A stretch of 60,550 nucleotides of DNA, the filler included. It is 4 parts of 4 records of this genome, joined end to end, with 100 filler letters (N's around TTAATTAATTAA, not from the genome) between each part and the next. Parts side by side here need not be neighbours in the genome. Positions count along the whole stretch, not along the records: positions 20,253 to 31,225 come from DRR723986_2396; 3 more parts are not named here. The stretch is one strand, 5' to 3'. Below, in pieces: positions 19,730-38,647 of this stretch (position 1 is the stretch's first letter; each line of letters begins with the position of its first letter). The notes beneath the pieces are model-generated. The model was not told the origin of the DNA. It made no database searches and saw only the letters and a program-made list of their open reading frames with translations. The position numbers and the translations under genes were made by a program.

Positions 19730-20152
19730 ATGGGTTATCGCGTCGCCGTCGTGGGCGCCACAGGCAATGTGGGCCGCGAAATGCTGAATATTCTGGCCGA
19801 GCGCCAGTTCCCTACGGACGAGGTTGTGGCATTGGCCAGCCGTCGGTCTTTGGGCACGGAAGTCAGCTATGGGGACACGACGCTCACGTGTAAGGATCTG
19901 GACACGTTTGATTTCACTGGCTGGGATATGGCGCTGTTTGCTGTTGGCTCAGAGGCCACCAAGAAATATGCGCCGGGTGCCGCCAAGGCGGGCTGCGTCG
20001 TGATCGACAACTCATCGCTTTATCGCTATGACCCGGATATTCCGCTGATCGTGCCCGAGGTGAACCCCGAGGCCGTTCACGGCTATGCCAAGAAAAACAT
20101 CATCGCCAACCCCAACTGCTCAACCGCGCAGATGGTTGTTGCGCTGAAGCCG
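19730..20152 (+). CDS. asd: aspartate-semialdehyde dehydrogenase, truncated by contig end
   Basis: VVGATGNVG, IDNSS, VPEVN and catalytic ANPNCST. Confidence 0.95.
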
Positions 20153-20252
20153 NNNNNNNNNNNNNNNNNNNNNNNNNNNNNNNNNNNNNNNNNNNNTTAA
20201 TTAATTAANNNNNNNNNNNNNNNNNNNNNNNNNNNNNNNNNNNNNNNNNNNN
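20153..20252. other. artificial contig linker
   Basis: N-run containing TTAATTAATTAA at 20197-20208, which gives stops in all six frames. Confidence 0.97.
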
Positions 20253-20465
20253 GTGGCGGCAGCTGCTTGCAGGCTAAGCCTCAGATTTAGGTCAGACCTG
20301 AGATTTGTTCGCATTGTTCTGACAGCACCGAGCGTAGGGCTGTCGATCTTCTAGCTCGCGCAGCAATGCTCGATCCGGCAGAAGAAGCTCTCCGGTTGCC
20401 ATTAACAAGAACGGAAGTGACTGACGCCCTTCGGGGCATCTGGTGGCATGCAGTTCATTCGTAGG

Positions 20466-21371
20466 TCACAAGCTGCTTTTTTCAGTCAAGAGATCCCACA
20501 CCAGCCGTTCGCCTTTACTATGGGGCCGCTGCACCCGGAAACAATAGGCAAACAAGTCTTCTGTCGGTAATACATCATCCAGTTGAAACAGGTCATCTTG
20601 CTCCACATGGGGGGCGGCGATGGCCGATGGCAGCCACGCCACCCCGGTGCCAGCCAGAACGAATTGGACCACGCCTGTTGACAGGCCAGATTCAATAAGT
20701 GGATCCAGATGAATGTTTCTTGGCAGGGATTTTACGATGTCTTCCCAAAGGACGCGGCCAAAGAAGTTCTGCCGCGGAAAAGTGATAACCGGGACGCGCA
20801 TGTTGTCCTGTGGTGACAGAGCGCGCAGCGCGTCGCGCAAACCCTTGTCGGCGGTGAAAGGTATAAAGCGGTCCGTTGCGATCTGCTCTCTCTCTAGATC
20901 TGGAACTTGGCCGAATAACGGGCGGCGCGCGGTTTCATAAGCCACCAGGATATCCACCTGCTTTGTCAGCAACAGCGCCACACCGTCTTCGGGATAGGCC
21001 GATTGTAGTTTCATCAGTAGACGGTCTTGGCCCTGCGCCTCGGTTAGTTTGCGTGGCAGGAACGAGGTCAGTAGGCTATGCTGCGCGGCAACCACCACTT
21101 TGGATGTATCACCCTGACTGGCCTGTAGTTCTGACCGCAGGTGGCGCAGGGTTGCGGCCATTTCATGCAGGGTCGGCATTAGCGCTACCATTTCAGGGGT
21201 CAGGCGCAGCGGACGGTTGGCGCGGTTGACGATATCGGCTCCAAACCAATGTTCAATAGCTGCGATGCGTCTGGAAAAAGCTGGTTGCGTCACATTGCGG
21301 GCCTTGGCCGCGCGTGACAGCGACCCTTTTTCTTCGATCGCAATGAGATCGTCGATCCAACCAATGTCCAT
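20466..21371 (-). CDS. LysR family transcriptional regulator
   Basis: SLSRAAKARNVTQPAFSRRI HTH; start is 21371 or 21386. Confidence 0.93.
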   Translation of the reverse strand: MDIGWIDDLIAIEEKGSLSRAAKARNVTQPAFSRRIAAIEHWFGADIVNRANRPLRLTPEMVALMPTLHEMAATLRHLRSELQASQGDTSKVVVAAQHSLLTSFLPRKLTEAQGQDRLLMKLQSAYPEDGVALLLTKQVDILVAYETARRPLFGQVPDLEREQIATDRFIPFTADKGLRDALRALSPQDNMRVPVITFPRQNFFGRVLWEDIVKSLPRNIHLDPLIESGLSTGVVQFVLAGTGVAWLPSAIAAPHVEQDDLFQLDDVLPTEDLFAYCFRVQRPHSKGERLVWDLLTEKSSL

Positions 21372-21384
21372 GGCAGCTTTCTTC

Positions 21385-21399
21385 ATGCAAGTTTTGCAT
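21385..21399. promoter_or_regulatory. putative LysR binding box
   Basis: ATGCAA-GTT-TTGCAT inverted repeat containing T-N11-A in the divergent intergenic region. Confidence 0.65.
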
Positions 21400-21472
21400 A
21401 TTAAGGCAGATAATCGGCATTATTCAAAGCTGTTTTTTGATCATAACATGTCCAAAGCAATGAGAGATAGCT

Positions 21473-21583
21473 ATGCCCCTTGACCTAGATCCATTTCCTC
21501 ATATCCGGCTAGCACATTTGGCGACCCCACTTGAATTTGCCCATCGCCTGGCCCCGGACGCCGCGGCAGCGGTGGCGGAGTAA
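21473..21583 (+). pseudogene. 36-aa remnant of a D-cysteine desulfhydrase/ACC deaminase/CuyA family gene
   Basis: MPLDLDPFPHIRLAHLATPLEFAHRLA matches the family N-terminus (FPR..LAHLPTPLE), then PDAAAAVAE-stop just before dctM. Confidence 0.65.
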
Positions 21584-21587
21584 CGTC

Positions 21588-22874
21588 ATGGCGGGGTGGG
21601 CGATCCTTGTCTTTGTGCTGGTCGCTCTGGCGGCAGGTGGCGCGATTGCATATGTCATCGGGGCGGGCTCGGTCCTGACCTTCGTGGCGCTGGGGCAGGC
21701 CGATTACCTTGCCATCCTGCCGCAACGTATGTTCAGCCAGTTGGATGTCTTTGCCTTCCTCGCCATGCCGCTGTTTATCCTTACAGGCGAGTTGATGAAC
21801 CGGGGTGGCATTGCCAATGCGCTGATCGATTTTTCCATGTCGATCGTCGGGAGGCTGAAGGGCGGTCTGGGGCATGTGAACATCCTGACCTCGGTGTTTT
21901 TTGCTGGGATCAGCGGGTCGGCCGCGGCCGATGCGGCGGCGCTGTCGAACACGCTGGTGCCGCAGATGGTGCGGCAGGGCTATTCGCTTAACTATGCGGC
22001 GGCGGTCACCGCTGCCTCGTCGATCATCGGGCCGATCATTCCGCCCTCGATCATCCTGATTTTCTATGGCGCGCTGATGAATGTGCCCATCGCCGCGCTG
22101 TTTGCCGCCGGGGTGCTGCCGGGGCTGATGCTGGCAGGCGTGCTGCTGGTGGTGAACGGCATCTATGCCCATGTGCAGGATCATCCCGGCGGGCGCGACG
22201 CCGATCTGCCGCCGTTCTCGCCCAGCCTGGTCAAGGCGCTGCCAGCGCTGCTGCTGCCCGTCATCATCTTGGCCGGTGTTCTGTTCGGCTATGCCACGCC
22301 CGCCGAATCCGCAGCCGTCGCCGTATTTGCAGCGCTGGTTATCGGCTTTGCCTATCGCGAGCTTGACCTTGCCAAGCTGCGACTTGCCGCCGAACGCACT
22401 CTGATGCTGCTGGGGGCAATTTTTATCATCCTCTGCGCAATCTCGGCCTTCAGCTATATTACCGCTCTGGCGCAATGGCCGCAGCGTATCTCGGCCTTTG
22501 TGGTCGGTCAGGGCTTTGACAAGGTGGAATACCTGCTGGTCATTAATCTTGTCTTCCTGCTGGCCGGGATGGTGATGGACGTCAAGGCTGCAGTGGCGCT
22601 TTTGGCGCCGATCTTTGTGCCCGTGGCGGTCACGCTTGGCGTCGATCCGGTGCATCTGGGCATTGTTATCTGTTTCAACATCACTGTTGGCCTGCTGTCG
22701 CCTCCTCTGGGCGGGGTGATCCTTATCATCTCGACTGTGACGGGGGCGAATTACTGGCAACTGATCAAGGCGACGCTGCCGTTCTTTCTGGTCGAGGTGG
22801 CGCTGCTGGCAGTGCTGGTGGCGGTGCCCGCGATTTCTCTGACCCTGCCGCAATGGCTAGGCCTTTTACCCTGA
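21588..22874 (+). CDS. dctM: TRAP transporter large permease
   Basis: AMPLFILTGELMNRGG, FAGISGSAAAD, IIPPSI and DPVHLG. Confidence 0.93.
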   Translation: MAGWAILVFVLVALAAGGAIAYVIGAGSVLTFVALGQADYLAILPQRMFSQLDVFAFLAMPLFILTGELMNRGGIANALIDFSMSIVGRLKGGLGHVNILTSVFFAGISGSAAADAAALSNTLVPQMVRQGYSLNYAAAVTAASSIIGPIIPPSIILIFYGALMNVPIAALFAAGVLPGLMLAGVLLVVNGIYAHVQDHPGGRDADLPPFSPSLVKALPALLLPVIILAGVLFGYATPAESAAVAVFAALVIGFAYRELDLAKLRLAAERTLMLLGAIFIILCAISAFSYITALAQWPQRISAFVVGQGFDKVEYLLVINLVFLLAGMVMDVKAAVALLAPIFVPVAVTLGVDPVHLGIVICFNITVGLLSPPLGGVILIISTVTGANYWQLIKATLPFFLVEVALLAVLVAVPAISLTLPQWLGLLP

Positions 22875-22895
22875 CAAACCCTTGGGAGGACCGAA

Positions 22896-23882
22896 ATGAA
22901 ACACCTGAAACTAACTCTTTCTGCCTTGGCTCTTTTGGGCACGCTGGCGCTGCCCGCGATGGCCGACACCATCAAGATCGCCATGAACGGTGCCGAAGAT
23001 CTGGAGACCAATTCCGAATACGCCTTTATCGTGGGCTTCCGTGATGCGCTTGCCGGATCGGGATTCGAGGTCGAGGTCTTCCCCTCGGACTCGCTCGGCG
23101 GTGAAAAGGAACGTCTGGGCCAGACCGGGCAAGGGTTGGTGCAGATCAACCTTGCCGCCGCCACCGCGCCCGCCTCGATCAGCCCAATGCTGCGCGGCCT
23201 CATCATGCCCTTCATGTTCCAAAGCGCCGCCGAACTGGATGCGGTGACGGCCAAGACCGATCTTTTGGACCAGATCAACGCCCCCCTTATCGAAAACGGC
23301 CTGCGCGTAGCCGCCTTTACTCAGCGTGGTCTGGACGCAGGCATTTTCAACTCGAAAAAACCCGTCGCCATGCTCGACGACCTGGCCGACCTGCGAATGC
23401 GTGCGCTGAACAAGGGGCAGGTAGCCTTCTTTCAGGTGCTCGGTGTGCAATCCACCGTCGTCGCATGGGGCGAGGTCGCCAACGCATTGCAAACCGGGAT
23501 CGTCGATGGCTATGTGAACCCGCCGAACTCGGCCCTGCGTACCGGGCATACCCAATACCTCAAACACTACACCCCGGCGGCGCTGGCCCCCTCGGTGCGC
23601 GCTGTCGTAGTATCTGAAGACTGGTGGAGCGGCCTGTCCGACGCCGATCGCACCACGATCCAATCGGCGATCGATGCAGGCACCGCCGCCAATCGCGCGT
23701 GGGTTCAGGACTGGTCCGGCAAGGTGCAGGCGCTCTTTGACGAGGCTGGCGTGACCGTGACCGAACTGGCCCCAGGCGAGCGGGAAAAGATGCTGGCCCT
23801 GTCCGAGGTTGTGCATAAGAAAGTCATGTCTGAAAGCGATCTTGCCGCCTATGCCGCCGCGCTGGCGCAGGTCCGCAACTGA
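22896..23882 (+). CDS. dctP: TRAP transporter substrate-binding protein
   Basis: GGAGG RBS; signal peptide; VEVFPSDSLGGE, LRMR and ALQTGIVDG. Confidence 0.92.
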   Translation: MKHLKLTLSALALLGTLALPAMADTIKIAMNGAEDLETNSEYAFIVGFRDALAGSGFEVEVFPSDSLGGEKERLGQTGQGLVQINLAAATAPASISPMLRGLIMPFMFQSAAELDAVTAKTDLLDQINAPLIENGLRVAAFTQRGLDAGIFNSKKPVAMLDDLADLRMRALNKGQVAFFQVLGVQSTVVAWGEVANALQTGIVDGYVNPPNSALRTGHTQYLKHYTPAALAPSVRAVVVSEDWWSGLSDADRTTIQSAIDAGTAANRAWVQDWSGKVQALFDEAGVTVTELAPGEREKMLALSEVVHKKVMSESDLAAYAAALAQVRN

Positions 23883-23901
23883 CGCGCGCGGGGGGTAAAC
23901 C

Positions 23902-24390
23902 ATGAAACGCGCGATCATCCGAACAAGCGATCTGGTCGATGCCGCCTTGTTGCGTGTCGCCATTGTGGCGCTGGCATTGCTGGTCGGCACGGTCGTATTG
24001 CAGGTGGTCGCGCGTTATGTCTTTTTCCAGCCCCCTGTGTGGACCGAGGAAATTGCCCGCTACCTGATGATCTGGGCGGGGCTTTTGGGCGCGACATTGG
24101 CCTTCAAACGCCACTTCGACCCGGCGATATTTCAGCCCAAGATGGGGCCGCGCGCGCAGCGGTTGGTTCTGACGATCCAATCGGTCGCGATCCTGATTTT
24201 CGTGCTGCCCGCGTTGTTTTACTGCTTTGTAGGGCCGGGGCTACGGGTGACGCGTGGCTTTCTAATGCGCCACTCGAAAACCTATTCCGAAACGCTGGAT
24301 ATCGCCACGATCTATGTGGCGGTGGCGGTGCCCTTGGCGCTGGCCGTGATCCTGCTGCACCTCGCCGCCCGCTGGGCAGGCGAGACCTAA
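23902..24390 (+). CDS. dctQ: TRAP transporter small permease
   Basis: QVVARYVF...WTEEIARYLMIW; four TM segments. Confidence 0.9.
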   Translation: MKRAIIRTSDLVDAALLRVAIVALALLVGTVVLQVVARYVFFQPPVWTEEIARYLMIWAGLLGATLAFKRHFDPAIFQPKMGPRAQRLVLTIQSVAILIFVLPALFYCFVGPGLRVTRGFLMRHSKTYSETLDIATIYVAVAVPLALAVILLHLAARWAGET

Positions 24391-24411
24391 AAACCGCTAA
24401 AGGGCTAAGCC

Positions 24412-25851
24412 ATGGCCGACTATGATCTGATCTTTCGCAACGCCCGCCTGATCGACGGCAGCGGCGGCCCGTCCGTCACTGGCGATCTGGCGATCACAGG
24501 CGACCGGATCGTGGCGATGGGGCAATTGGCTGAGGACACCGCCGCCCAAGAGATCGAGTGCGACGATCTGGCGCTTGCACCCGGTTTCATTGACAGTCAT
24601 TGCCACGACGACCGCGCCGTTCTGGAAATGCCGCTGCTGGAACCCAAGGTCAGCCAAGGCGTGACTACCGTTATCAACGGCAATTGCGGGGTCAGCATCG
24701 CCCCGGTTCTGCCCGACCGCCCGCAACCGCCTGCGCCGCTTAGCCTGTTCACCGCACCGGGCACCACGAACTTTCCTGATTTCGGCGCCTATTTCGCCGC
24801 GCTGGAAACCACGCCCACCGCTGTGAACACCGCCTGCCTGTGTGGCCATTCCAACCTGCGCCACGCGGTTATGGACCGGCTGGACCGCGCCGCGACCGCC
24901 GACGAAATCGCTGCAATGTGCGCGCTTCTGGACCAGGCACTTCGGGCCGGGGCCATCGGGCTATCCACCGGGCTTTACTATGCTCCCGCCACCAATGCCC
25001 CCACGGACGAGGTGATTGCCATCGCCCGCACCCTTGGCCGCCACGATGGGCTTTATGTTACCCATATGCGCAACGAAGAGGATCGCGTGATCGACTCCTT
25101 GCTCGAAACCTTTCGGATCGGGGCCGAGGCCGGTGTGCCCGTGGTCGTGTCGCACCACAAATGCATGAGCAAACCGAACCACGGTAAATCGAAGATCACG
25201 CTCGATCTGATCGACAAGGCGCGCGCCCATCAAAACATCGCGCTGGATGCCTATCCCTACGCCGCCAGTTCCACCATTTTACAGCCTGAGCGCGTCGAAA
25301 AATGCGACCGGGTGGTGATCACATGGTCCGATGTAATGCCCGATGCCTCGGGGCGCGATCTGGCCGAAATCGCCGCCGAAATGGGCTGCACCCCGCGCCA
25401 AGCGGCCGAGCGGCTGATGCCCGGCGGTGCCGTTTATTTCCAGATGAGTGAAGAGGACGTGCGCCGTATTCTCAGCTATCCTGACACGATGATTGGCTCG
25501 GACGGGATCGTGCACGATAAACACCCCCATCCCCGCGCATGGGGCACGTTCCCACGGGTGCTGGGGCACTATTGCCGCGATGAAAACCTGTTCGCGCTGG
25601 AAACCGCCGTGCACAAGATGACAGGCCTGACCGCGCGCAATTTCGCCCTGACCGGGCGCGGGGTGCTGGCACCGGGCAACTTTGCCGATCTGGTGCTTTT
25701 TGACCCGGCCACCATCATCGACATCGGCGATTTCGCCGACCCCTGCCGCCCCGCCAAAGGGATCAAGCGGGTTTATGCCAACGGTGTCTGCATTTGGCTG
25801 CAAGGGCAGCCCACCGGTGCGCGTCCTGGTCGACCATTGCGGCGCACTTAG
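24412..25851 (+). CDS. N-acyl-D-amino-acid deacylase (D-aminoacylase family)
   Basis: PGFIDSHCHDD, GNCG, HMRNE, SHHK, IGSDG and PHPRAWGTFPRVLG. Confidence 0.92.
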   Translation: MADYDLIFRNARLIDGSGGPSVTGDLAITGDRIVAMGQLAEDTAAQEIECDDLALAPGFIDSHCHDDRAVLEMPLLEPKVSQGVTTVINGNCGVSIAPVLPDRPQPPAPLSLFTAPGTTNFPDFGAYFAALETTPTAVNTACLCGHSNLRHAVMDRLDRAATADEIAAMCALLDQALRAGAIGLSTGLYYAPATNAPTDEVIAIARTLGRHDGLYVTHMRNEEDRVIDSLLETFRIGAEAGVPVVVSHHKCMSKPNHGKSKITLDLIDKARAHQNIALDAYPYAASSTILQPERVEKCDRVVITWSDVMPDASGRDLAEIAAEMGCTPRQAAERLMPGGAVYFQMSEEDVRRILSYPDTMIGSDGIVHDKHPHPRAWGTFPRVLGHYCRDENLFALETAVHKMTGLTARNFALTGRGVLAPGNFADLVLFDPATIIDIGDFADPCRPAKGIKRVYANGVCIWLQGQPTGARPGRPLRRT

Positions 25852-25971
25852 CAGATAACTCGATCAAGTATCAGTTCTGCCGGCTTTGTCAGAGGCACTT
25901 TGCTTTAGGCACAGAGCACTGGCGAAGCCTTCGTCTGGCGGCCTCTTACGTTCAATACGTCGCGCTTGACG

Positions 25972-26898
25972 CTATTGCTGTGCTTTCAAGGCCCGTTTCA
26001 AAGACGCCGCGCAAGAAAACCCGCACAGTGCTGCTGCATCTGCTGCAGAAATCCCTTGTTGAAACATAAGCTCGCGCGCCCTTGCCAGGCGCATATGCTG
26101 GTAGGTTTTGCCTGGGGGTAGCCCCAGTTCGGCTGTAAACAGGCGCGCCATGCTGCGCAGTGTCAGCCCTGCTGTGGCGGCGATCTGGGGCAAGGGGCGG
26201 GGCTTTTCTATTGTGGTGGCCATGAGATCCAGTACTTTGCGAATACGTGGGTTGGGATGAGAAGGCAAACCACCAAAGCCATCATCGGCCGCGCCTGTAA
26301 GACGTGGTGCGTTTAAAAACATTGACGCGGCATCAAAGCGGGCCGCCGCGCCGAACCGCTGCGTAATTTCTTGCAAAACCAGTTCCATCGCCCCCGCCGC
26401 GCTGCCGCAGCTCAGCCATTTGCCGTCGCTGGCAAAGGGGGCCGCTACGCGGTTTACCTTTGGAAATCGGTCAGCGAATTCGTCGAGTAGTTGCCAGTGC
26501 AAGGTCGCCTGCCGCCCCTCCAGATACCCAGCCGAGGCCAGCAACCACGCCCCTGTATCGGCGGCGATCACCGTTTTGGCGCGGTGCGCTGTCATAAGCG
26601 CGCGGCGGGTGGCTGGCTGGCCTGCATCCCGTCGGAACCTGTCGCCGCCGATCACGATCAGTAGATCGCAGGCCCCTGCCTGCGACACTGGGCAATCGGG
26701 GGTCAGTGACAGCCCGCTGGACGATGCGACAGGGCCATCACTTGGGGTCAGGATGGCCCAGGTAATGGCCGCGCCATGTTCATCGCGCACCACGCGCAAT
26801 GGTTCCAGCAGGCAGGCCAAAACCATGTTCGAAAACGCCTCGAACAGCAGGATGTTGATCCGCAGCGCGGGCGCGGTCTTTGGCAGAATCGGTGTCAT
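25972..26898 (-). CDS. GlxA family AraC transcriptional regulator
   Basis: N-terminal DJ-1/amidase-like domain (EPLR, ASSSGL, TGAWLLA, ATLHW) plus C-terminal AraC HTH. Confidence 0.9.
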   Translation of the reverse strand: MTPILPKTAPALRINILLFEAFSNMVLACLLEPLRVVRDEHGAAITWAILTPSDGPVASSSGLSLTPDCPVSQAGACDLLIVIGGDRFRRDAGQPATRRALMTAHRAKTVIAADTGAWLLASAGYLEGRQATLHWQLLDEFADRFPKVNRVAAPFASDGKWLSCGSAAGAMELVLQEITQRFGAAARFDAASMFLNAPRLTGAADDGFGGLPSHPNPRIRKVLDLMATTIEKPRPLPQIAATAGLTLRSMARLFTAELGLPPGKTYQHMRLARARELMFQQGISAADAAALCGFSCAASLKRALKAQQ

Positions 26899-26970
26899 GA
26901 TTGGCAGCTTCGGTGATTTTGCGCCCATTCGCTATACCGCATCCTGTCCGAAACGCTATGGAGAGCCGCC

Positions 26971-29451
26971 ATGCCCGACCGCCCCCTTTCCCATATCCGC
27001 GTGCTGGATTTCGGCCATTACCTGGCAGGCCCGATGGTGGGCATGATGCTGGCCGATCTGGGGGCCGAGGTGATCCGGATTGATCCGCCCGGCGGGCCGC
27101 GCTGGCGTGATCCTGCGTTTGACATGCTCTCACGCGGCAAGCGGTCTTTGGTGCTGGATCTGAAAACCGATGCAGGGCGGCAAACCGCGTTGGATATGGT
27201 CGCGCGCGCCGATGTGGTGATCGATAATTTCCGCCCCGGCGTGATGGCGCGGCTGGGGCTTGGCCCCGCGGGCCTTCGCGCGGCGAACCCTGGTATCGTG
27301 TCGCTGTCGCTGCCCGGCTTTGCCTCGGCCGACCCCGAATTGGCCGGGTTGGCCGCGTGGGAGGCAGTGATTGCGGCCCGCACGGGGCAGTTCACCGATA
27401 TGGGGTTGAACCGGCAATTGATGGGGATCAATCCGTCTTTCACGCCGCTTGGGCTGGCGTCGGCCTATGGTGCGGCGTTCGGCGCGATGGCGGTGCTGTT
27501 TGCGCTTGGTGCCCGCGACCGGATGGGCGGCGATCATATCGAGGTGCCGCTGGCCTCGGCGCTCTTCGAAGGGCTGGTCTATAATTGCCAGCAGGTTCAG
27601 GACTATCCCGCGCGCTACAAATCCCCGCGCGAGGTGGAACTGGACCGGCGCCGCGCGGGCGGCCTGCCGCTGGACCTGAGCTATGCCGATTTGGGCGCGT
27701 TTCTTGACCCGTTTTATCGCACCTATACCTGCGCCGATGGGCGGGGTTTCTATGTGGTGTCCTGTTCGATCAAAACGCACCCGCGCCGGGTGTTGCATGT
27801 GCTGGGGTTGCAGGATCTGGCGGCTAGCCTGCCTGATTTTGACGCTTATCTGGACCAAAAAGACTGGCCCGATGACTGGGCGATGCGCAACTATCCGGTC
27901 GGGGATCGTGACCGCAAGCGCGTATCGGATGCGATGCAGGCGGTGTTTCTAACCCGGCCCTCGTGGGAGTGGGAGGCGATTTTTGGCGCGGCCAAGGCCC
28001 CGGCCAGCGCGCAGCGCAGCACGGCGGAGTGGTTGGCCGATCCGCATGCGCTGGCCTCGGGGTTGGTGTTGACGGTGGATGACCCGCGCCATGGGCCGAT
28101 GCGGCAGATGGGCAATCTGGCATGGCTACTGGATGATGCAGGCGCGATGCGCAAACACCCCGGCCCGGTGGTGGATGAGTTTCGCGCCGATCTGCCCGCA
28201 TTGCTGGCCGAAAGCCCCCGCGCCGCACCGCAGGGCAGGGGCCAGGGCGGCTGGCTGGACGGGCTGCGCGTGGTGGACCTGACCAATGTGATCGCAGGCC
28301 CCACCATCGGCGCAACGCTGGCGCGGTTCGGGGCGCAGGTGACGTCGGTGCAGCCGGTCAGCCCCTCGGTCGATCCGTGGAATGCGATCGTTTTTGGCAT
28401 GCACGCCCATCGCGGCAAGGAAAGCGTGCTGCTGGATCTAAGCTGCGATGCGGGCCGCGCGGCGCTAAAGCGGTTGATCGCGGGGGCCGATGTGTTCACG
28501 ATGAACGGCACCGATGAACAGCGCGACGCGCTTGGCCTGTCGCCCGAAAGGCTGACGGCGCTGAACCCGCGCGCGATCCTTGTGCAGCTCGATGCCTGGG
28601 GCGGGCCGATGCGGGGGCCGAAATCGGATCATCTGGGCTATGACGATCTGGCGCAGGCGGCGACCGGTGTGATGGTGCGCTTTGGCGGCGGGCCGGACAC
28701 GCCCGAGGAACACGCCCATTTCGGCACGATCGACGCGCTGACAGGCTATGCCGCCTGCGTCGCCCTTGGTGCGGCGCTGGAACGGCGGCGGTTGACCGGA
28801 AAGGGCGGCGTGGCCCGCGCGGCGCTGGCCGGGTGTGGTGCGATGATCCAGGCGCAGTTCATGTATGATTTTGACGGGCGCGGGCCGTTCGATGAACCCG
28901 CCGGGCGGCAGGCGCGGGGCTGGGGGCCGTTCTATCACTGCTACCGGGCCACGGATGGTTGGATGTTTTTTGCCGCCCCGACCGAGCGCGCCGCAGCGCT
29001 GGCCCGCGTGCCGGAACTGGCCGATTTGGCGGGGGTGGCAGAGGGTGGATTGGCCGTGGCGCTGGCCGACCGCTTTGCCGCCCATCCCATCGCCCATTGG
29101 CAGGCGCGCTTTGCGGATGGGTCGTCAGCGGTCGTGCCGCTGGGCTCGCTGTCGGAAAATCGCGATAAAAACCTGCACCTTGAAAGCAACGGCCCCGCCG
29201 ATATCCGCCACGCCACCTATCGCGCGATCCGGCATGACCAGCACCCGATGGGCCGCTGGGTTGATCTGGTGGCGCCCAATGCGGTGCGCCCCGACCGCGC
29301 CGCGATCACCATCCCCGGCCATGCGCCCAAACCCGGCGCGCAAACGCGGGCGATCCTGTCGCAGATCGGGCTGACACAGGCCGAGATCACGGCCATGATA
29401 GACACAGGCACCGCCGCAACGGGCTGGTCTGACAAATACCTGCCGGAGTAA
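26971..29451 (+). CDS. two-domain family III CoA transferase/lyase, DddD-like (826 aa)
   Basis: Two tandem CaiB domains (DFGHYLAGP; DLTNVIAGP); FTDMGLNR..MGINPSF motif; Asp retained only in the C-terminal domain (HAHFGTID, residue 588). Confidence 0.88.
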   Translation: MPDRPLSHIRVLDFGHYLAGPMVGMMLADLGAEVIRIDPPGGPRWRDPAFDMLSRGKRSLVLDLKTDAGRQTALDMVARADVVIDNFRPGVMARLGLGPAGLRAANPGIVSLSLPGFASADPELAGLAAWEAVIAARTGQFTDMGLNRQLMGINPSFTPLGLASAYGAAFGAMAVLFALGARDRMGGDHIEVPLASALFEGLVYNCQQVQDYPARYKSPREVELDRRRAGGLPLDLSYADLGAFLDPFYRTYTCADGRGFYVVSCSIKTHPRRVLHVLGLQDLAASLPDFDAYLDQKDWPDDWAMRNYPVGDRDRKRVSDAMQAVFLTRPSWEWEAIFGAAKAPASAQRSTAEWLADPHALASGLVLTVDDPRHGPMRQMGNLAWLLDDAGAMRKHPGPVVDEFRADLPALLAESPRAAPQGRGQGGWLDGLRVVDLTNVIAGPTIGATLARFGAQVTSVQPVSPSVDPWNAIVFGMHAHRGKESVLLDLSCDAGRAALKRLIAGADVFTMNGTDEQRDALGLSPERLTALNPRAILVQLDAWGGPMRGPKSDHLGYDDLAQAATGVMVRFGGGPDTPEEHAHFGTIDALTGYAACVALGAALERRRLTGKGGVARAALAGCGAMIQAQFMYDFDGRGPFDEPAGRQARGWGPFYHCYRATDGWMFFAAPTERAAALARVPELADLAGVAEGGLAVALADRFAAHPIAHWQARFADGSSAVVPLGSLSENRDKNLHLESNGPADIRHATYRAIRHDQHPMGRWVDLVAPNAVRPDRAAITIPGHAPKPGAQTRAILSQIGLTQAEITAMIDTGTAATGWSDKYLPE

Positions 29452-29455
29452 GCGC

Positions 29456-31090
29456 ATGACAACCGAAGGCCCCGGCCCCGCGATCACCCCCCGCACCCGC
29501 GCCCGTGCGCGGCACATCCTGGACCATTACTATATCGGGCCGGCGCGAGATCCGCAGGTGCTGGAAATCTGGGGCTATACCCCGCGCATGAGCTATGCGC
29601 CGGGCGATGAGGTGGTGCTGCATGTCTCGACCACTGCCGAGAGTTGGTCGTTCGAGGTGGGCCGCGATGGTGCGACATACGAGCCGCTGCTGCGTGTCGG
29701 TGACCTGCCGGGCAGGCATTACGACACACCTGCCGATTGTTCGGTTGCTGGCTGCAACTGGCCTGAAAGCACCCGCTTTATCGTGCCCGAGGGCTGGCGC
29801 CCCGGTGGCTACCTGATCACCCTGACCGCCGAACGGGGTGGCGACCGGGTCGAGGAACACCACCTGATCCTGATCCGCCGCGCCCCCCACCTACCGCGCA
29901 CGCCCTATGTGCTGGTCTGCGCCACGGGCACGTGGCTGGCCTATAACTGCTGGGGTGGGTCGAACCATTACGAAGGGATCACCGGGCCCGAGGGCAACGA
30001 ATTTTCGCCCGTTGTCTCCACCCAGCGGCCTTGGACGCGGGGGTTTTGCAAACTGCCCGCAGGCGCGCCGCGCGCGCTATCGGATCAGCCCCCGAAACAT
30101 GGCGAGATGACGCGCTATCCTTACATGGAATGGGCCTATGCCTATGGCTATTCCAAGAAATATGCATCAAGTGGGTGGGCCAGCTATGAACGCCCCTTCG
30201 TCCGCTGGGCGGAAAGCGCGGGCTATGATCTAGACTTTTGCACCCAGCACGATCTGGACGCCGACCCGGGCCGCCTGACTGGCCATGCCTGCGCGATCTT
30301 TGTGGGGCACGATGAATACTGGAGCGCGCCGATGCGCGACGCGGTGGATGCTTATGTCGATGCGGGCGGGCGCGTGGCGCGGTTTGCGGGCAATTTCCTG
30401 TGGCAAACGCGGCTGGGCGACGGGAGCCGCACCCAGACCTGCTATAAATACCTGGCCGCGCGTGACCCGATGGCCGCCGGCCCCACCCCCCACCTGACCA
30501 CCGCCGCGTGGGAGGTCGCGCCAGTGGATCGCCCCGGCGCGCTGACATTCGGCGTCAACGCGTTGCGCGGGGTCTATGCTGGGCTGGGGCGCTGCGCGGG
30601 CAATGGGCCGGGTGGGTTTACCGTCTATCGCCCTGATCATTGGGCTTTTGATGGTGCCGGGCTGGGTTATGGCGATGTGCTGGGGGCATCCTCGCGCATC
30701 TTTGGGTATGAGGTCGATGGGCTAGATTATCGTATGGAGGACGGCCTGCCGTTTCCCACCTGCACCGACGGGGCAGTGCCGGACATCACGATACTTGCCA
30801 TGGGGCTGGCCACGAATATCGAGGCCGATACCGGTGTCTGGGGCGAGACGCTTTATATCGGCAGCGCAGATGCGGCGTTTAAAGCGATGGCGCTTTATGG
30901 AGAGATCACGCCCGAAACGCTGGACGCATGCGCGCGCGGCAATGGCATGATCATCCACTGGCCCAAGGGCAAGGGCGAGGTCTTTACCGCCGCCACCTGC
31001 GAATGGGTGGCGGGGCTGATGCGCGGCGATGCGCAGGTCGTGAAAATCACCAAGAATGTGTTGGACAGATTTGGCGGGCAGGCGCCTTAG
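29456..31090 (+). CDS. N,N-dimethylformamidase beta-subunit-like protein
   Basis: GYT..SYAPGD, TWLAYNCWGGSNHY, GHDEYWS, FAGN and GYEVD motifs. Confidence 0.85.
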   Translation: MTTEGPGPAITPRTRARARHILDHYYIGPARDPQVLEIWGYTPRMSYAPGDEVVLHVSTTAESWSFEVGRDGATYEPLLRVGDLPGRHYDTPADCSVAGCNWPESTRFIVPEGWRPGGYLITLTAERGGDRVEEHHLILIRRAPHLPRTPYVLVCATGTWLAYNCWGGSNHYEGITGPEGNEFSPVVSTQRPWTRGFCKLPAGAPRALSDQPPKHGEMTRYPYMEWAYAYGYSKKYASSGWASYERPFVRWAESAGYDLDFCTQHDLDADPGRLTGHACAIFVGHDEYWSAPMRDAVDAYVDAGGRVARFAGNFLWQTRLGDGSRTQTCYKYLAARDPMAAGPTPHLTTAAWEVAPVDRPGALTFGVNALRGVYAGLGRCAGNGPGGFTVYRPDHWAFDGAGLGYGDVLGASSRIFGYEVDGLDYRMEDGLPFPTCTDGAVPDITILAMGLATNIEADTGVWGETLYIGSADAAFKAMALYGEITPETLDACARGNGMIIHWPKGKGEVFTAATCEWVAGLMRGDAQVVKITKNVLDRFGGQAP

Positions 31091-31225
31091 ACCCAGTTGG
31101 GCAGCTATGCCGTGCCACCCATTACGCCAGCCGGCCTAAAGCAGGCCGGCCTCTTGCAGCACTTTACGTGCCACGCGAAAGCACTCCAGCCGGTCTTGTC
31201 AGAAGAACTTTGCTTGAGACAGGGC

Positions 31226-31325
31226 NNNNNNNNNNNNNNNNNNNNNNNNNNNNNNNNNNNNNNNNNNNNTTAATTAATTAANNNNNNNNNNNNNNNNNNN
31301 NNNNNNNNNNNNNNNNNNNNNNNNN
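31226..31325. other. artificial contig linker
   Basis: N-run with TTAATTAATTAA at 31270-31281. Confidence 0.97.
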
Positions 31326-31727
31326 CATTCCACCCACCCTATATTTCTACAGGTTAAAAAAGTGATAAAAGTGTAACCAAAATCCAGGAAAGCCCTTGGT
31401 CGACATGCGGGCCGTCACTACAAGTCTAACACCCGAACTCGCAAATTCATACTGCATAAAAACAAACGGACAGTAAACCCCGAATCAACGGCCGGTAAAT
31501 CGGGATAATCGTGAGGAGGTGACCATAAATGTATTTTCAGCTGCCCTCGTTGTTTAAGGTGGACGCTGAGAGAATTTCTGCCGCCTGCACTTGTGCCAGG
31601 CCCTGAGGTCTTGAACTCGATGGCCGCAAGTCCTGCGGAATTGCTCCCGGCAGGACTTCCGGCATTGAACCAAAGAAACGTGAATATTACGAATCGTGAT
31701 GTCGGTTAAGAGCCGAAGCTTGTATTT

Positions 31728-31792
31728 GCTGACTATTATAGCCAACTATTCTGGCCAACTATTCTGGCCAACTATTCTGGCTGACTATGCTA
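31728..31792. repeat. 13-bp tandem repeat, 5 units
   Basis: GCTGACTATTATA / GCCAACTATTCTG x3 / GCTGACTATGCTA. Confidence 0.9.
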
Positions 31793-32176
31793 GCTGGCAG
31801 TGCTTGTTTCGCTTTTGGAGTCTTCCGCCGCTTTGCGTGAAAAGACCTTTGTTAATACATCCGGCATTTTCTCAAGAGCCGCACCTAGGCCACCGCGATG
31901 TCCGACGTCGAGAATCTGAATCGAGTCGCCATGCGTGACCAGAAAACCAAGCGGTTCCATTCCCAGACCCGCACCGGCACCACCGCCACTGCCCTGCGCC
32001 TTTTTGTCGTCTTCGCCTGTGCCGGCGCCACCGCCAAAACCCACGCCGATCCGAATGATAGGCACACAGGTGAATTCGCCGAGCGTAAAGGCTTCGCCAA
32101 CAACAGTTTCGGTCTTGACAAGGTTGCTGACGTTTTCAGTTACATCCTTGAGTAGTGTCTCAAAATTGGGAGTCAT
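31790..32176 (-). CDS. GerW/YtfJ family protein
   Basis: KTETVVGE...VPIIRIGVGFGGG...GGGAGAG..PLGFLV signature. Confidence 0.85.
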   Translation of the reverse strand: MTPNFETLLKDVTENVSNLVKTETVVGEAFTLGEFTCVPIIRIGVGFGGGAGTGEDDKKAQGSGGGAGAGLGMEPLGFLVTHGDSIQILDVGHRGGLGAALEKMPDVLTKVFSRKAAEDSKSETSTAS

Positions 32177-32757
32177 GTCTTTAACCTTTTATTTGATGAT
32201 GGAAGAGGAGTAAATATATTCCAGGCGAACGCCAGAGCAGCCAGAAGAATGTAATACGGTCGAAGTTTGAGCTTGGAATACATCCAGTTGTGTTTGTTGA
32301 AGTTGATAACAATGTTAAGTCCATGTGCCGCAAGTAGAGGCTGTAGCGCAAATAGCTGCGCATTCAGAATTACATCACCACTGTCAAATGCGGCTTTGAA
32401 CTCGAGTATTTTCAGCGCCTTGCGCAAACGTCGTAACATCGACGGAAGTGAGCTGATTATTCGCCTGTGTTTAGGACGCCATCGCTTCTTGCTTTGGGGT
32501 TGTGCATTTTTTAACTCCCTGGCCTGTTGTTTGTGCGTCTTAGGTACGCCTTTTTTAACACGGAAACGTTTGCCGGGGACCTGCACCTCACGAATCCATT
32601 CGCCGCTCGCTTCCGAAACATATACGCGCACGTGAACAAGGTGCAGCAGGACAATTGATGCGTAAGGCCGTGCCGTGTCAATTTCGACGATGATCGGCAT
32701 AGTTAACACAATCACCGCAGTGACAATGCACAATGCAACAATGAGTAGTATTGTCAT
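32173..32757 (-). CDS. YtfI/DUF2953-like membrane-anchored basic protein
   Basis: N-terminal TM, basic middle, FDSGD..LNAQL...INF; stop overlaps the ytfJ-like start. Confidence 0.6.
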   Translation of the reverse strand: MTILLIVALCIVTAVIVLTMPIIVEIDTARPYASIVLLHLVHVRVYVSEASGEWIREVQVPGKRFRVKKGVPKTHKQQARELKNAQPQSKKRWRPKHRRIISSLPSMLRRLRKALKILEFKAAFDSGDVILNAQLFALQPLLAAHGLNIVINFNKHNWMYSKLKLRPYYILLAALAFAWNIFTPLPSSNKRLKT

Positions 32758-33023
32758 GCTCCCTCGCAGAATGTGTCGCCGACTGTGCAGTCATTCGAGA
32801 AAGCGGCGACGTCAATGGGAAGGTCTGACTTGTGCGGATGCCGTGGAACTCACTTTTAAAGTACGATGTAGATGCATGTGAAGCTATGACGTGCCTCATG
32901 CTCTTTCCTGATTTGTTGCGGTGTCTCTGCTTAGAGTTTCTGCTGTGTGTTTCTGTGATATGTTTAAGGCAGGGATGACTCGTGTGACGCGTAATTAGAT
33001 CGGGATAATCACATTAAGAAATG

Positions 33024-33071
33024 CACATGCCCGGAGCAGACGCGGACGTGCAGCGTTGTTCCAGGCATGTG
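33024..33071 (-). terminator. stem-loop terminator after the T9SS cargo gene
   Basis: CACATGCCCGGAGCA / TGTTCCAGGCATGTG inverted repeat (13/15) followed by a U-rich stretch on the minus strand. Confidence 0.6.
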
Positions 33072-33099
33072 TTAAAAGGTTAGAATTTGAGAGTCAAGT

Positions 33100-36000
33100 T
33101 TATTGAACCATAAATTTAACAGAACTGCTCTTGCCGTTCGGCAGCTGCAAAGTCATTATATACACGCCGCTCGCCCAGTCACCAATGGGAATCAACTGCT
33201 CAGACTGTGCTGAAGTCACCGGCGCTTCAAGGAGTTTGTTTCCGGCGATGTCGAATACCTGGATATTAGCTCCCAGGCTGACGTTGACATCACGACGGTC
33301 GATGTTAACTGTCAGGAGGGAATTGGCGCTGACTGGGTTGGGGCTTAACTCAAGTGCCTCGTGGCCTTCGTGCTGCAAATGCTCATGCTCGGAAGCAGAA
33401 GTCACAAGAGTTCCTCCCTGCGGAAAACACAGCTCACCAAAGTAACAGATGCGAAACTCATCATAGCCGTGTACCAAAGTAAGCGGCGACTCAGTGTGCA
33501 CCCAGCCGGGTAGGGCCTGTACATCCGTGACCTGCAATGTTTGTCCCGAACCACTTACTACTGAGTGCGTAAAACTAAGCAGCGTCGGGTCCGTGACTTT
33601 CTCGTCGCTAAGTTCTTGCATGCGGCAGCTGTTCTCAATGCCGATTTTAGTTGAATACATGTCACCTTTGTTCCACTCGGAAAACGAGCAGTTACTGCCG
33701 GTGATGAAGAGCGAACCATCTTCCAGGACGTCGATGTCATTGGCGCAATCTTCCTGGCCGGCGTTCACAACCGGCAGCTCAAAACCTGGGGCAGCCTGCG
33801 ACTTATGAACATCTCCGTTAACAAGCAGCTCTGCGATATATACCTGTTCTTCGTAGTCGATACCGCTGATGATATCATTATAATAGGTGACACCGGTGAA
33901 GGCAAAGGAGTCGTCATCGCGCTGCACAATACCCATTGCCTGATCGTTACTGCTGCGGTGATATGTGCGTTTCCATTCGACCATGCCAAGTTCATCGATT
34001 TTAATTACGATCGCATCGCGGTTGATGCTATTTTTGTTTGTCCCGCAGAGGATAAAGCCGTCATCATTAAATCCATCGCTGTCGTCATCTGTGGGTACAA
34101 TTGATGTTGCCCAGCAGTCTCCAAGCGAATATGAAAAGGCCCACTGCACAGCACCCAGATTGTCAAGGCGCATGACAAATACGTCGCGATCTGCGAAACC
34201 GTTCTGGCCGGGATTGCTGCCGAGTTCCTTGGAGCTACCGACAACTATGAAACCATTGTCGGCCAGGCCGTCGCCATCAGCATCCACGGGGTGCACGCTC
34301 TGAGCCTCGGTATATGCGCGGTCCAACACAGAATATGTCTTGGCAAATTGCACAGCACCGGACTGATTAACATATGTGACGAGAGCCTGGCGTTGTGTGC
34401 CGCCATTCGTCGCATAACCGGCGGCAACATATCCATTTCCATCACTTGAACTCAGGTTGGGAATCGGCCGGACTTCCTTAAACAACTCATCGTGATCCGC
34501 CAGGCGTTCACCAATCGATACCGCCCAGTCCGGATTTGTTCCTTCAACTCTGGTTATGACGGCATTGTCTTCAGTGTTGCCGGAGCCGAGAGAATTAACC
34601 AGGCGTCCGGCAAGAGCAAAACCATTGTCACTCGTGCGCTGAATATCATGGCCTTCCGCGTGGTAATATTTTGACGTGTTTGGAATCGTGAATCTGACAT
34701 ATTGGTTGCTGATGATACTGCCGTCTTCGCCGTGTACCAGAATTGGCATGTCTTGTGAAGAAAGGTCGCTCTTGTAACTCGCTATTCCGGTTAGTGCATA
34801 CTGTGGAACAATCAGTCCGCCGCCGCCAACTGTTCCCTCGAATGCCACACCCGCTAAACCACGGTCATATTTGTCGTCAAAGTGATATTGAAACAGCGGC
34901 TGATGAATTGGTTCATGCGGGCACTCGTGGACTTCCGCTATTTTGATATCCAGTTCGATATAATCCACAAAGGTTTCATCGGGGCCACCCAAAAGAGGTC
35001 CAAGCACTAAAGGCGACTGGCCCAACTTTGTTTGTTTGGTTACTTCATCATCTTGCTCAAAAATACAGAGTGTGTTATTAAAACAGAGTTGCTCATCAAC
35101 GTGCATGATGTATGTGTGCGGATCGGTGGTATTTGCACCGACATTATCTTTGTAGCCGACAATAGCGTAGCCGCCCGCAGCCGTTTTTTCCATATCAAAT
35201 GCACCCTGATTACTTTCAAAGTTCCATTGTGGCGCTTCAAAGTGTGCGGCTTTAATCAGAGTACCGCCCACGTCAAATTGCATGGTTAATATACGCGTGT
35301 GATCTGCTGTGGCATCTTTGTATTGCCCCACGGCAAATACGCCACCGGAAGCGGATTCCTCAACGGCGTAGAACGATTCATCGTGATCTGTATCACCAAT
35401 TACTTGTGTCCAATATCTGTTACCCAATTGATCCGTCCTGATAACCACTCCATCGGTGCGTGCCGGTTGAGCGATTGTAGTGGCCGTGCCGCTAATCAGG
35501 AAACCATCGTCAGAGGTTTGGCGGACATCCATTCCGCGCGTTTCAAAGTCCGAATCATCATAAACTTTTGCCCAATTGAGCGTTACAAAAGGCGCAGTTG
35601 TCGAGTAGGTGAAATGCATTAAGGTGACACCCTGAACAGCAGCGTCCGGTGGACAGCTTACATCTACACTTCCAGTCACAACAAATTCATTGGCTGAGCC
35701 GATTTCGCGAATCGAGTATCCACGCATTTTAGCCCTGTCACAGGTCGAAAATCCCGGTGTGTTAAGTGTGTACGACCAGAGCATCATACCGCTGGGATCA
35801 TAACAGATCAGCAGCATGTTTTCGATTGAAGGGTTTGAGGCATCCTGCTCAAATCCAACCATGACGTAATTGCCGTTGTTAAGTACTTCAACGCAGCGCG
35901 CTTCACTATCAGTGGCAGTTGACATGCGTTTTTCCCAGAGGATTTTGCCCGCATCATCAACTTTAATCATGATAGCGCGTTTGTGGCGTGTATTGGCGCC

Positions 36001-36354
36001 CACAAATACATAACCAATATCGCCAACATTCGTTTGGTGGATCGACCAGGGGTCCATTCCCGGGTCTTCGAAGTAGTATTCTTGCTCAAGTACGACGCCG
36101 AGCGCATCAAACTTGGTAAACTGTCCACCTTCCAAACCGTACCAATTTGCGATAGTCACAAAGCCGCCATCGCGCGTTTGCTGGATGGCGCGCCCTTCCG
36201 AGTCCTTTGCATCTACGCTGGGGTCTATCTTTAGTCCCACTTCAAACAGCTGTGGTTGTGCTTGCAGACTCGTAGTCTGCAGTAGCAGTAAAATAATTGC
36301 TGTGCTGAACGCTAACAGCGCGTGTGTCCACGCTGGGTGTTTTTCACTAAACAT
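33100..36354 (-). CDS. secreted repeat protein (probable beta-propellers) with T9SS type A C-terminal sorting domain
   Basis: Signal peptide ending LQA-Q; repeated T.DGGF / W.K.Y blades; C-terminal LSPNP...VFDIAG...ASGVYIM...VKFMVQ. Confidence 0.88.
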   Translation of the reverse strand: MFSEKHPAWTHALLAFSTAIILLLLQTTSLQAQPQLFEVGLKIDPSVDAKDSEGRAIQQTRDGGFVTIANWYGLEGGQFTKFDALGVVLEQEYYFEDPGMDPWSIHQTNVGDIGYVFVGANTRHKRAIMIKVDDAGKILWEKRMSTATDSEARCVEVLNNGNYVMVGFEQDASNPSIENMLLICYDPSGMMLWSYTLNTPGFSTCDRAKMRGYSIREIGSANEFVVTGSVDVSCPPDAAVQGVTLMHFTYSTTAPFVTLNWAKVYDDSDFETRGMDVRQTSDDGFLISGTATTIAQPARTDGVVIRTDQLGNRYWTQVIGDTDHDESFYAVEESASGGVFAVGQYKDATADHTRILTMQFDVGGTLIKAAHFEAPQWNFESNQGAFDMEKTAAGGYAIVGYKDNVGANTTDPHTYIMHVDEQLCFNNTLCIFEQDDEVTKQTKLGQSPLVLGPLLGGPDETFVDYIELDIKIAEVHECPHEPIHQPLFQYHFDDKYDRGLAGVAFEGTVGGGGLIVPQYALTGIASYKSDLSSQDMPILVHGEDGSIISNQYVRFTIPNTSKYYHAEGHDIQRTSDNGFALAGRLVNSLGSGNTEDNAVITRVEGTNPDWAVSIGERLADHDELFKEVRPIPNLSSSDGNGYVAAGYATNGGTQRQALVTYVNQSGAVQFAKTYSVLDRAYTEAQSVHPVDADGDGLADNGFIVVGSSKELGSNPGQNGFADRDVFVMRLDNLGAVQWAFSYSLGDCWATSIVPTDDDSDGFNDDGFILCGTNKNSINRDAIVIKIDELGMVEWKRTYHRSSNDQAMGIVQRDDDSFAFTGVTYYNDIISGIDYEEQVYIAELLVNGDVHKSQAAPGFELPVVNAGQEDCANDIDVLEDGSLFITGSNCSFSEWNKGDMYSTKIGIENSCRMQELSDEKVTDPTLLSFTHSVVSGSGQTLQVTDVQALPGWVHTESPLTLVHGYDEFRICYFGELCFPQGGTLVTSASEHEHLQHEGHEALELSPNPVSANSLLTVNIDRRDVNVSLGANIQVFDIAGNKLLEAPVTSAQSEQLIPIGDWASGVYIMTLQLPNGKSSSVKFMVQ

Positions 36355-36541
36355 GTGAAGTCCTATTGTGAAAATTTATACAATACCTCTTCTACCCACC
36401 CGCATAAGCTCCAGGTCAGAGCCGGTGCGGGATGTGATCGATTGAGGATGTATTAAATGGTAACGCGCGTTACAGTGATGAATATGCCTGTGCCGTGCGC
36501 TTAGGCCAAAAAATAAATAGGGTATGCATAGGGTAGATTGC

Positions 36542-38587: not shown

Positions 38588-38647
38588 GATCCCCATGCCG
38601 GTCTGAACGCAGATCCCCATGCAGATCCCAGTGCCGATCCAAATGGA
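38588..38647. repeat. degenerate 12-bp tandem repeat, 5 units
   Basis: GATCCCCATGCC / GGTCTGAACGCA / GATCCCCATGCA / GATCCCAGTGCC / GATCCAAATGGA. Confidence 0.7.

Follow-up and report, generated by a model that had tools for sequence, protein, structure and literature searches.

A conserved three-gene unit pairs a DddD-family protein from outside the canonical DddD clade with a GlxA-type regulator and a predicted dimethylformamidase-like amidohydrolase

DddD cleaves dimethylsulphoniopropionate (DMSP) to dimethyl sulphide (DMS) and 3-hydroxypropionyl-CoA in Marinomonas MWYL1 and Halomonas HTNK1, and is also known from Sinorhizobium fredii NGR234. It is a protein of ~830 aa with two tandem family III coenzyme A (CoA)-transferase domains and a catalytic Asp in the C-terminal half only. 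The NGR234 DddD was reportedly found active by Todd et al. in 2007, and Asp602 of Marinomonas DddD is said, after work by Alcolombri et al. in 2014, to be catalytic and confined to the C-terminal domain. The large subunit of dimethylformamidase (DMFase) from Paracoccus sp. DMF (6LVB) is a three-domain protein of ~775 aa, which is accompanied by a small alpha subunit. GbdR, CdhR and SouR are Pseudomonas regulators of betaine, carnitine and sarcosine catabolism, with these compounds as ligands; they combine a DJ-1/PfpI-like (GATase1-like) sensor domain with an AraC helix-turn-helix (HTH) domain and are divergent from a catabolic operon. Here we analyse a 60,550-nt stretch of DNA (the window), in which relatives of all three lie side by side at 25972-31090. 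The DddD-like protein of the window belongs to a strongly supported sister clade of canonical DddD, and its gene is inherited together with the other two.

The three genes are present and arranged as an earlier note, made from the letters of the sequence, had described them. Specifically, open reading frames (ORFs) and Pfam domains define a 318-aa ORF at 25972-26928 on the minus strand and, divergent from it, an 826-aa ORF at 26971-29451 and a 544-aa ORF at 29456-31090 on the plus strand, the last two being separated by 4 nt. The features of the locus are as follows.

25972-26898, minus strand: GlxA/GbdR-type AraC regulator with a DJ-1/PfpI-like sensor domain and HTH_18 (Pfam); the longest ORF reaches 26928
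26880-26914, plus strand: candidate operator, two direct repeats TTGGCAGNWTCGGT (26880-26893 and 26901-26914), 21 nt from start to start
26899-26970, no strand: divergent promoter region of 72 nt, with a ribosome-binding site GGAGAG at 26960-26965 (read from the sequence)
26971-29451, plus strand: 826-aa DddD-family protein with two family III (CaiB/BaiF) CoA-transferase domains and Asp588 (Pfam, tree)
29456-31090, plus strand: 544-aa DMFA2_C-family protein, a predicted mononuclear-metal amidohydrolase (Pfam, profile, predicted structure)
25980-31083, no strand: extent of the cassette, 5.1 kb, the sole part of the window with nucleotide likeness (73-90%) to related loci
25872-25911, plus strand: left copy of an imperfect 40-nt direct repeat, the copies being 78% identical (repeat search)
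31182-31221, plus strand: right copy of the same repeat (repeat search)

The 826-aa protein is co-linear with DddD over 99% of its length. Pfam assigns it to CoA_transf_3 (PF02515; 2.1e-130) in two stretches. No NCBIfam CoA-transferase model comes near its cut-off on it, CaiB reaching 107 bits versus 413 with a match in the C-terminal half; none of the three proteins reaches an NCBIfam equivalog cut-off, and the 544-aa protein matches no model. The catalytic Asp is D588, in a GTID motif of the C-terminal half, in a region that aligns to PDB 2G04. Asp and Glu are both missing from the N-terminal loop that matches this region (residues 150-176), and Ser164 takes the position of D588, an equivalence that rests on HMM and family alignments, as BLASTP of the two halves aligned residues 6-114 only. 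Asp588 and Ser164 show no variation among the 89 family members compared, which include canonical DddD. Thus, an Asp in the C-terminal half only, which the earlier note had singled out, is a true property of the 826-aa protein but does not distinguish it from DddD.

Other than that shared architecture, the protein is well separated from characterized DddD. The best 120 relatives in the database have 802-834 aa and 72-95% identity to it; most belong to Rhodobacterales, and some to Rhizobiaceae and Halomonas. Identity to canonical-type DddD is 42-50%, with no intermediates; plasmid-borne genes like those of NGR234, Rhizobium, Agrobacterium and Paraburkholderia share 45-47% identity with the window protein (NGR234, 46%). 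A quick IQ-TREE of 114 rows was computed with Shimodaira-Hasegawa-like approximate likelihood-ratio (SH-aLRT) support, leaving out six fragments shorter than 650 aa, L074 with its very long branch, and L103 and L105-L116, which are duplicate loci. The canonical clade (39 rows) and the window's clade (67 rows, branch length 0.63) each have SH-aLRT support of 100, and the window protein sits in the latter, apart from the experimentally ratified DddD and at 42-49% identity to the canonical clade. The window's clade takes in the plasmid-borne 'dddD' of Dinoroseobacter shibae. The canonical clade contains NGR234 and the classical layouts, namely LysR-GMC-DddD(-BCCT) in alphaproteobacterial loci and, elsewhere, dddD, BCCT, genes of alcohol and aldehyde dehydrogenase size and LysR in another order.

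Surveys of two sets of genomes likewise gave no intermediates. Among 401 genomes from the family of G002, a window-type gene is present in 13 (67-92% identity) and a canonical-type gene in 14 (42-50%). One of these genomes, G664, carries both, a canonical-type gene with GMC and LysR genes and a window-clade gene in LysR context (L127, L130), which suggests that the two clades are not redundant. Among 401 genomes from the order of G001, canonical genes occur in 16 (56-73% identical to NGR234) and the window type in one.

Canonical DddD loci are marked by clustered dddT (BCCT), dddB/dddC or dddA (GMC) and a LysR-type dddR; the window triad has no dddT, dddB, dddC, dddA or dddR and has the GlxA-type regulator and the DMFase-like gene in their place. 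We collected 73 loci whose relative reaches 55% identity or more; both flanks were readable in 64, and nine lacked one flank. Among the readable loci, both partners are present in 29, the DMFA-like gene alone in six, the regulator alone in five and neither in 24. The three genes form a conserved, co-inherited unit. Neither partner gene was found in any of 21 canonical DddD loci. All triad loci fall within a 48-row subclade (support 98). Its 16-row sister subclade (support 98), which includes Leisingera aquimarina (L040) and Ruegeria arenilitoris (L041) and is 67-79% identical, has a different context: a divergent LysR gene in 15 of 15 loci, a BCCT transporter in six of 15 and a GMC oxidoreductase in two of 15, without GlxA-type regulator, DMFA-like gene or TTGGCAG repeat. 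Identity to the window protein varies in parallel for the DddD-like and DMFA-like proteins (Spearman 0.68, 33 loci) and for the DddD-like protein and the regulator (Spearman 0.86, 38 loci); as the loci are related, these values express consistency and do not constitute a test.

The DMFase-like neighbour is nearly exclusive to this clade. With orthologues defined by at least 66% identity to the 544-aa protein and paralogues at no more than 54% (401 genomes of one family), orthologues occur in 13 of the genomes, 10 of which have the gene next to the DddD-like gene and on its strand, nine times within 30 nt and once ~2 kb away. The remaining three are a lone copy (G553), a fragment at a contig end (G669) and a copy with stop codons (G784). 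The earlier note had named, as the outcome that would tell against it, a protein within the validated DddD clade, with DMSP-specific activity and induction, next to an unconserved DMFase-like gene; the tree places the protein outside that clade, and the neighbourhoods show the neighbour to be conserved.

The unit is also discrete. BLASTN of the related loci against the window gave no match outside 25900-31150, and the likeness is limited to 25980-31083, at 73-90% in the nine closest loci listed. The same triad, each time with unrelated flanks, is found on D. shibae plasmid pDSHI01 (190.5 kb), where an integrase and an IS91 transposase lie next to it, and on a plasmid of Shinella sumterensis. 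In the window, the 40-nt direct repeats bracket the cassette just beyond the limits of DNA likeness to other loci. The core pattern of this repeat, derived from its two copies, matches only those two in the window and is absent from the 138 loci searched, and no comparable flanking direct repeat was found in four other loci. The repeat is possibly an insertion scar. Taken as a whole, 25980-31083 is best explained as a self-contained catabolic cassette of three genes that has been transferred between genomes.

In D. shibae pDSHI01 (L001, 5445-13143) the triad directly follows the site-specific integrase and the IS91 transposase, and Dshi_3633 is mentioned twice in the accessible part of PMC8831719, on the 191-kb D. 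shibae 'killer plasmid'. A plasmid of Ruegeria sp. THAF33 (L003, 5739-15412) has a DddD-like gene of the cassette subclade with neither partner, flanked by genes for saccharopine dehydrogenase and aldehyde dehydrogenase on one side and for a class V aminotransferase and a dimethylglycine-dehydrogenase-like (DAO-GCV_T) protein on the other, which is another amine-catabolic context.

Is the cassette a decaying or functionless remnant? Among the 29 loci with both partners, the DMFA-like gene is frameshifted or truncated in two metagenome-assembled genomes (L004, L005) and the DddD-like gene is broken in one locus (L025); together with the fragments with stop codons in G784, the damaged DMFA-like copies may reflect assembly errors or real decay. 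However, the ORFs are unbroken in the window, as in most loci, the operator repeats described below are conserved, and the ratios of nonsynonymous to synonymous substitution (dN/dS) against three relatives are 0.09-0.12 for the regulator, 0.09-0.13 for the DddD-like gene and 0.08-0.10 for the DMFA-like gene, which indicates purifying selection on all three. We consider a remnant very improbable.

The 544-aa protein matches DMFA2_C (PF20254; 2.6e-67) in Pfam. A search of the PDB with the single sequence gave no real match, whereas a profile of 46 relatives retrieved N-acetyl-(R)-beta-phenylalanine acylase (8HUY; 2.6e-35) and the DMFase large subunit (6LVB; 1.2e-34). The AlphaFold model has a predicted local distance difference test score (pLDDT) of 93.8, and its only strong Foldseek matches are the same acylase (8I5A/8HUY) and DMFase 6LVB. 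In DMFase the iron ligands are Y399, Y440 and E521, and H519 and N547 are essential, according to the accessible part of PMC7686228. By profile alignment, DMFase Y399, H519, E521 and N547 correspond to Y163, H285, E287 and N313 of the 544-aa protein, each at least 90% conserved in the 46 relatives. The protein has the DMFA2_C domain and fold. Unlike the DMFase large subunit, the 544-aa protein lacks domain II, as DMFase residues 41-339 (~300 residues, domain II included) are replaced by ~29 profile positions in its family. Because the conserved stretch ends 7 nt before the stop codon of the 544-aa gene, no small-subunit gene belongs to the cassette. Together, these matches and the settings of the paralogues described next point to a predicted amidase for small N-acyl or amide compounds.

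Paralogues of ~45-50% identity on rhizobial and other plasmids lie among amino-acid and peptide transporters, peptidases and ectoine-utilisation-like genes. In one case, a plasmid of Rhizobium sp. CCGE532 (L084, 2042-12857), a ~51% paralogue is part of an ectoine-utilisation-like cluster with an aminotransferase, an amino-acid ABC transporter, an Xaa-Pro peptidase family protein, an AsnC regulator, an M20 peptidase and EutB.

The regulator has the two domains of the GbdR, CdhR and SouR family, namely DJ-1_PfpI (4.1e-14) and HTH_18 (2.3e-12), and like these regulators it is divergent from the operon. It is not a GbdR orthologue because it scores 142.6 bits with the GbdR model (NCBIfam NF052371), whose cut-off is 480. 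In the window two repeat copies, TTGGCAGAATCGGT (26880-26893) and TTGGCAGCTTCGGT (26901-26914), form the pattern TTGGCAG-N14-TTGGCAG, which is conserved in an 18-locus alignment; the two copies are the only zero-mismatch matches to the repeat in the 60.5-kb window. The CAT at 26896-26898, between the repeats, is conserved in the same alignment; hence the regulator probably starts at Met11 (26898), which leaves a divergent region of 72 nt. The repeats span this start codon and end 57 nt before the ATG of the DddD-like gene. A scan of 26899-26970 for consensus sigma-70 promoters and terminators gave nothing above shuffled sequences. The relaxed pattern TTGGCA-N15-TTGGCA is found at the same position in 24 of 39 loci that have the regulator and in none of 23 loci with neither partner; one of 22 canonical loci contains it, at a different place. 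TTGGCAG-N14-TTGGCAG is therefore a likely candidate for the operator of the regulator.

These features can be combined into a pathway, of which the following is the most likely form. The regulator would bind the two TTGGCAG repeats straddling its own start codon and, given a small, probably zwitterionic, inducer, would switch on the divergent operon. The DddD-like enzyme would move CoA from acetyl-CoA onto a 3-substituted propionate and eliminate the beta-substituent, leaving acryloyl-CoA or 3-hydroxypropionyl-CoA; CoA transfer and elimination are proposed because the catalytic equipment of the family (Asp588, Ser164) is kept. The translationally coupled 544-aa amidohydrolase would strip an N-acyl or amide group and thereby let the substrate, or a conjugate of it, enter the CoA step.

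Our best guess for the compound is an acylated or N-methylated beta-alanine-type solute, or DMSP plus such a conjugate, rather than DMSP alone. We put the chances at about even that the cassette acts on an amide-linked or nitrogen analogue, either alone or beside DMSP. More tentative is a strict nitrogen counterpart of the DddD route, in which the amidohydrolase would deacylate an N-acyl beta-amino acid or an amide-linked beta-alanine-type solute, and the DddD-like enzyme would form the CoA thioester and eliminate NH3, dimethylamine or trimethylamine to give acryloyl-CoA or 3-hydroxypropionyl-CoA. The earlier note had read the module as acting on a nitrogen analogue or amide conjugate of DMSP or carnitine. 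This is a reasonable hypothesis and is partly supported, its real support lying in the context: a conserved, exclusive and transferable pairing, and a clade outside ratified DddD. None of the computations singles out a nitrogen analogue or an amide conjugate as substrate.

The residues conserved in DddD allow for another possibility, namely that the gene is a true dddD producing DMS and 3-hydroxypropionyl-CoA from DMSP as in Marinomonas and Halomonas, the LysR regulator having been swapped for a GlxA-type one and the DMFA-like gene being accessory or a passenger. The enzyme shares its architecture, Asp588 and Ser164 with canonical DddD. The 39 canonical rows have 262 columns conserved at 95% or more, and both subclades of the window's clade keep 161 of them unchanged. 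Seventeen of the 262 carry a change common to both subclades, and five of these fixed differences (F537L, C538V, C542A, I567V and C591T) lie within 51 residues of Asp588, which counts against a true dddD, as does G664 with its gene of each clade. Furthermore, the DMFA-like orthologue, 4-8 nt downstream, nearly clade-exclusive and under purifying selection, is unlike a passenger gene. We regard a true dddD as possible, though doubtful.

Several points nevertheless weigh against assigning the cassette a substrate of its own. Of the 339 columns conserved at 95% or more both in the cassette enzymes and in those of the LysR-context subclade, just one differs between them, and none of the 262 conserved canonical columns is altered solely in the cassette enzymes. 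This is the strongest argument for the CoA-transferase having kept one specificity on gaining new partners, and that specificity could be for DMSP. DMSP therefore stays in play, because there is no fixed difference from relatives in a ddd-like LysR/BCCT/GMC context. As for the partners, the ligand class of the regulator is known for distant relatives only, and DMFase Y440 falls in an unaligned stretch of the 544-aa protein, so that four of five active-site residues are mapped and the invariant Y172 is a candidate counterpart only. Eight longer proteins related to the 544-aa protein included no fusion of the two enzymes, though as evidence this is weak. Finally, SPO_RS08640 of Ruegeria pomeroyi, a 'DddD-like' gene, is raised 2.5- to 4.8-fold by DMSP combined with oxidative stress (PMC9769926), although this locus tag is not tied by name to the clade.

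The published record on such genes can be read in both directions. As the earlier note implied, they are named dddD on homology alone in public records and papers. Specifically, two of the 120 closest relatives are named DddD by their sources (P0062, P0068), and Dshi_3632, SPO1703 and the HIMB11 gene are called dddD by homology in the accessible parts of PMC4069834, PMC3789786, PMC7934745, PMC4334477, PMC5395565 and PMC4148974; PMC4069834, in the part available, gives 43% identity to the Halomonas protein as the basis. These names favour a true dddD, as does the modest induction of SPO_RS08640 with DMSP and H2O2 (PMC9769926), but every such naming rests on homology. With DMSP alone the same gene changes 1.1-fold, versus 4.3-fold for dddW, and it stands outside the three R. 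pomeroyi DMSP lyases (PMC9769926). Similarly, the roseobacters listed as having DddD 'with predicted DMSP lyase activities' are Sagittula E-37, Citreicella SE45 and HTCC2083 only, and neither R. pomeroyi nor D. shibae is among them (PMC3338564). P0023, which is labelled R. pomeroyi, is 88% identical to the window protein, while SPO1703 itself is not linked by name to the clade. In the literature consulted, which did not include Todd et al. 2011 and 2012, we found no assay of any member of the window's clade and no report of DMSP activity; likewise, nothing was found there that joins DddD with dimethylformamidase, and nothing relevant on DddD with beta-alanine betaine, carnitine and similar compounds. 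In G808, from the genus group of Ruegeria marina, the triad is the sole DddD-family member. SPO1702 is mentioned in the accessible part of PMC3390766.

A further alternative concerns the elimination step. Family III enzymes such as CaiB only transfer CoA, and the C-terminal half of the window protein does match the CaiB model. The DddD-like enzyme might thus be a CoA-transferase without lyase activity, acting on acrylate, 3-hydroxypropionate, carnitine, crotonobetaine or gamma-butyrobetaine, with the amidohydrolase supplying the free acid from a simple amide. A carnitine sensor is among the members of the regulator family. TauD/gamma-butyrobetaine-hydroxylase-like dioxygenase genes lie near the DddD-like gene in six loci and directly downstream in one of them (L014), but six of 73 loci is a small share. 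In addition, the scores with all NCBIfam CoA-transferase models are far below cut-off, and the protein is co-linear over its full length with DddD and not with single-domain CaiB. We therefore consider transfer without elimination improbable. The dioxygenase loci are L014 (10585-14124), L012, L022, L053, L065 and L070, and in L014 two TauD-like genes and extra GlxA-type regulators directly follow the DddD-like gene; the recurrence of such genes hints at quaternary-amine chemistry.

The wider surroundings of the triad have to be read with care, since the window consists of four contigs joined artificially, with linkers N44-TTAATTAATTAA-N44 at 20153-20252, 31226-31325 and 39487-39586. The triad lies at the end of the 10,973-nt contig 20253-31225 (GC content 0.624), and only this contig is real context because the window concatenates contigs. 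The other features concerned are listed below.

20466-21386, minus strand: LysR regulator on the same contig, outside the conserved unit
21531-24390, plus strand: TRAP transporter DctM/DctP/DctQ on the same contig, outside the conserved unit
24412-25851, plus strand: Amidohydro_3 protein on the same contig, outside the conserved unit
31226-31325, no strand: artificial contig linker N44-TTAATTAATTAA-N44; sequence past it is no neighbour of the triad

The earlier note had stated that no LysR regulator or transporter is present here. This was incorrect, as a LysR gene, at a distance of 4.6 kb, and a TRAP transporter lie upstream on the same contig, though they are not conserved there: the LysR, TRAP and amidohydrolase genes adjoin the triad in none of 80 related loci and are thus rejected as parts of the unit. 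The genes past 31226, including those for a protein with a type IX secretion system (T9SS) tail and a LuxR/TPR protein, are ruled out as neighbours by the contig linkers. ORFs that run across linkers (e.g. 19730-20200) are artefacts, and gene order across linkers is meaningless. The contig 31326-39486 has a GC content of 0.507, versus 0.58-0.62 in the other three. Genes on it encode a 1084-aa protein that carries a T9SS (Por_Secre_tail) sorting domain, as well as a YtfJ-like protein and a TPR/LuxR regulator. The contig may be bin contamination or a foreign island, as a T9SS tail is unexpected in an alphaproteobacterium.

The placement of this clade matters because dddD is used as a marker gene for estimating bacterial DMS production from genomes and metagenomes. 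According to the accessible parts of PMC6309047 and PMC9327192, cut-offs in use are 40-50% identity and E <=1e-30; the window protein passes the 40% cut-off, and such thresholds admit the window's clade unless a tree is added. The rule of the field, as given in the accessible part of PMC9327192, is that DddD must group with experimentally ratified DddD in a tree. The genome papers of D. shibae, R. pomeroyi and HIMB11 list such a gene as a DMSP lyase, and in one large alphaproteobacterial family the window's clade is about as common as canonical DddD (13 versus 14 of 401 genomes). If the clade acts on another compound, some estimates of DMS potential are inflated. If the nitrogen route is true, the 'dddD' of model roseobacters (the D. 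shibae plasmid gene, the R. pomeroyi-type genes and that of HIMB11) and of many metagenomes would release no DMS and would instead mark an undescribed osmolyte pathway.

For the DMFase family, the cassette would also provide the short single-subunit branch with its first role in physiology; the two relatives of this branch with solved structures are amidases. The simple make-up of the cassette, a single regulator with one predicted operator and two enzymes, makes it an unusually clean starting point in the search for the compound. Cassettes of this type are seen in many marine and soil bacteria, and dddD genes that are routinely counted may act on a different compound; if so, a widespread, plasmid-borne and transferable pathway for a new solute awaits discovery.

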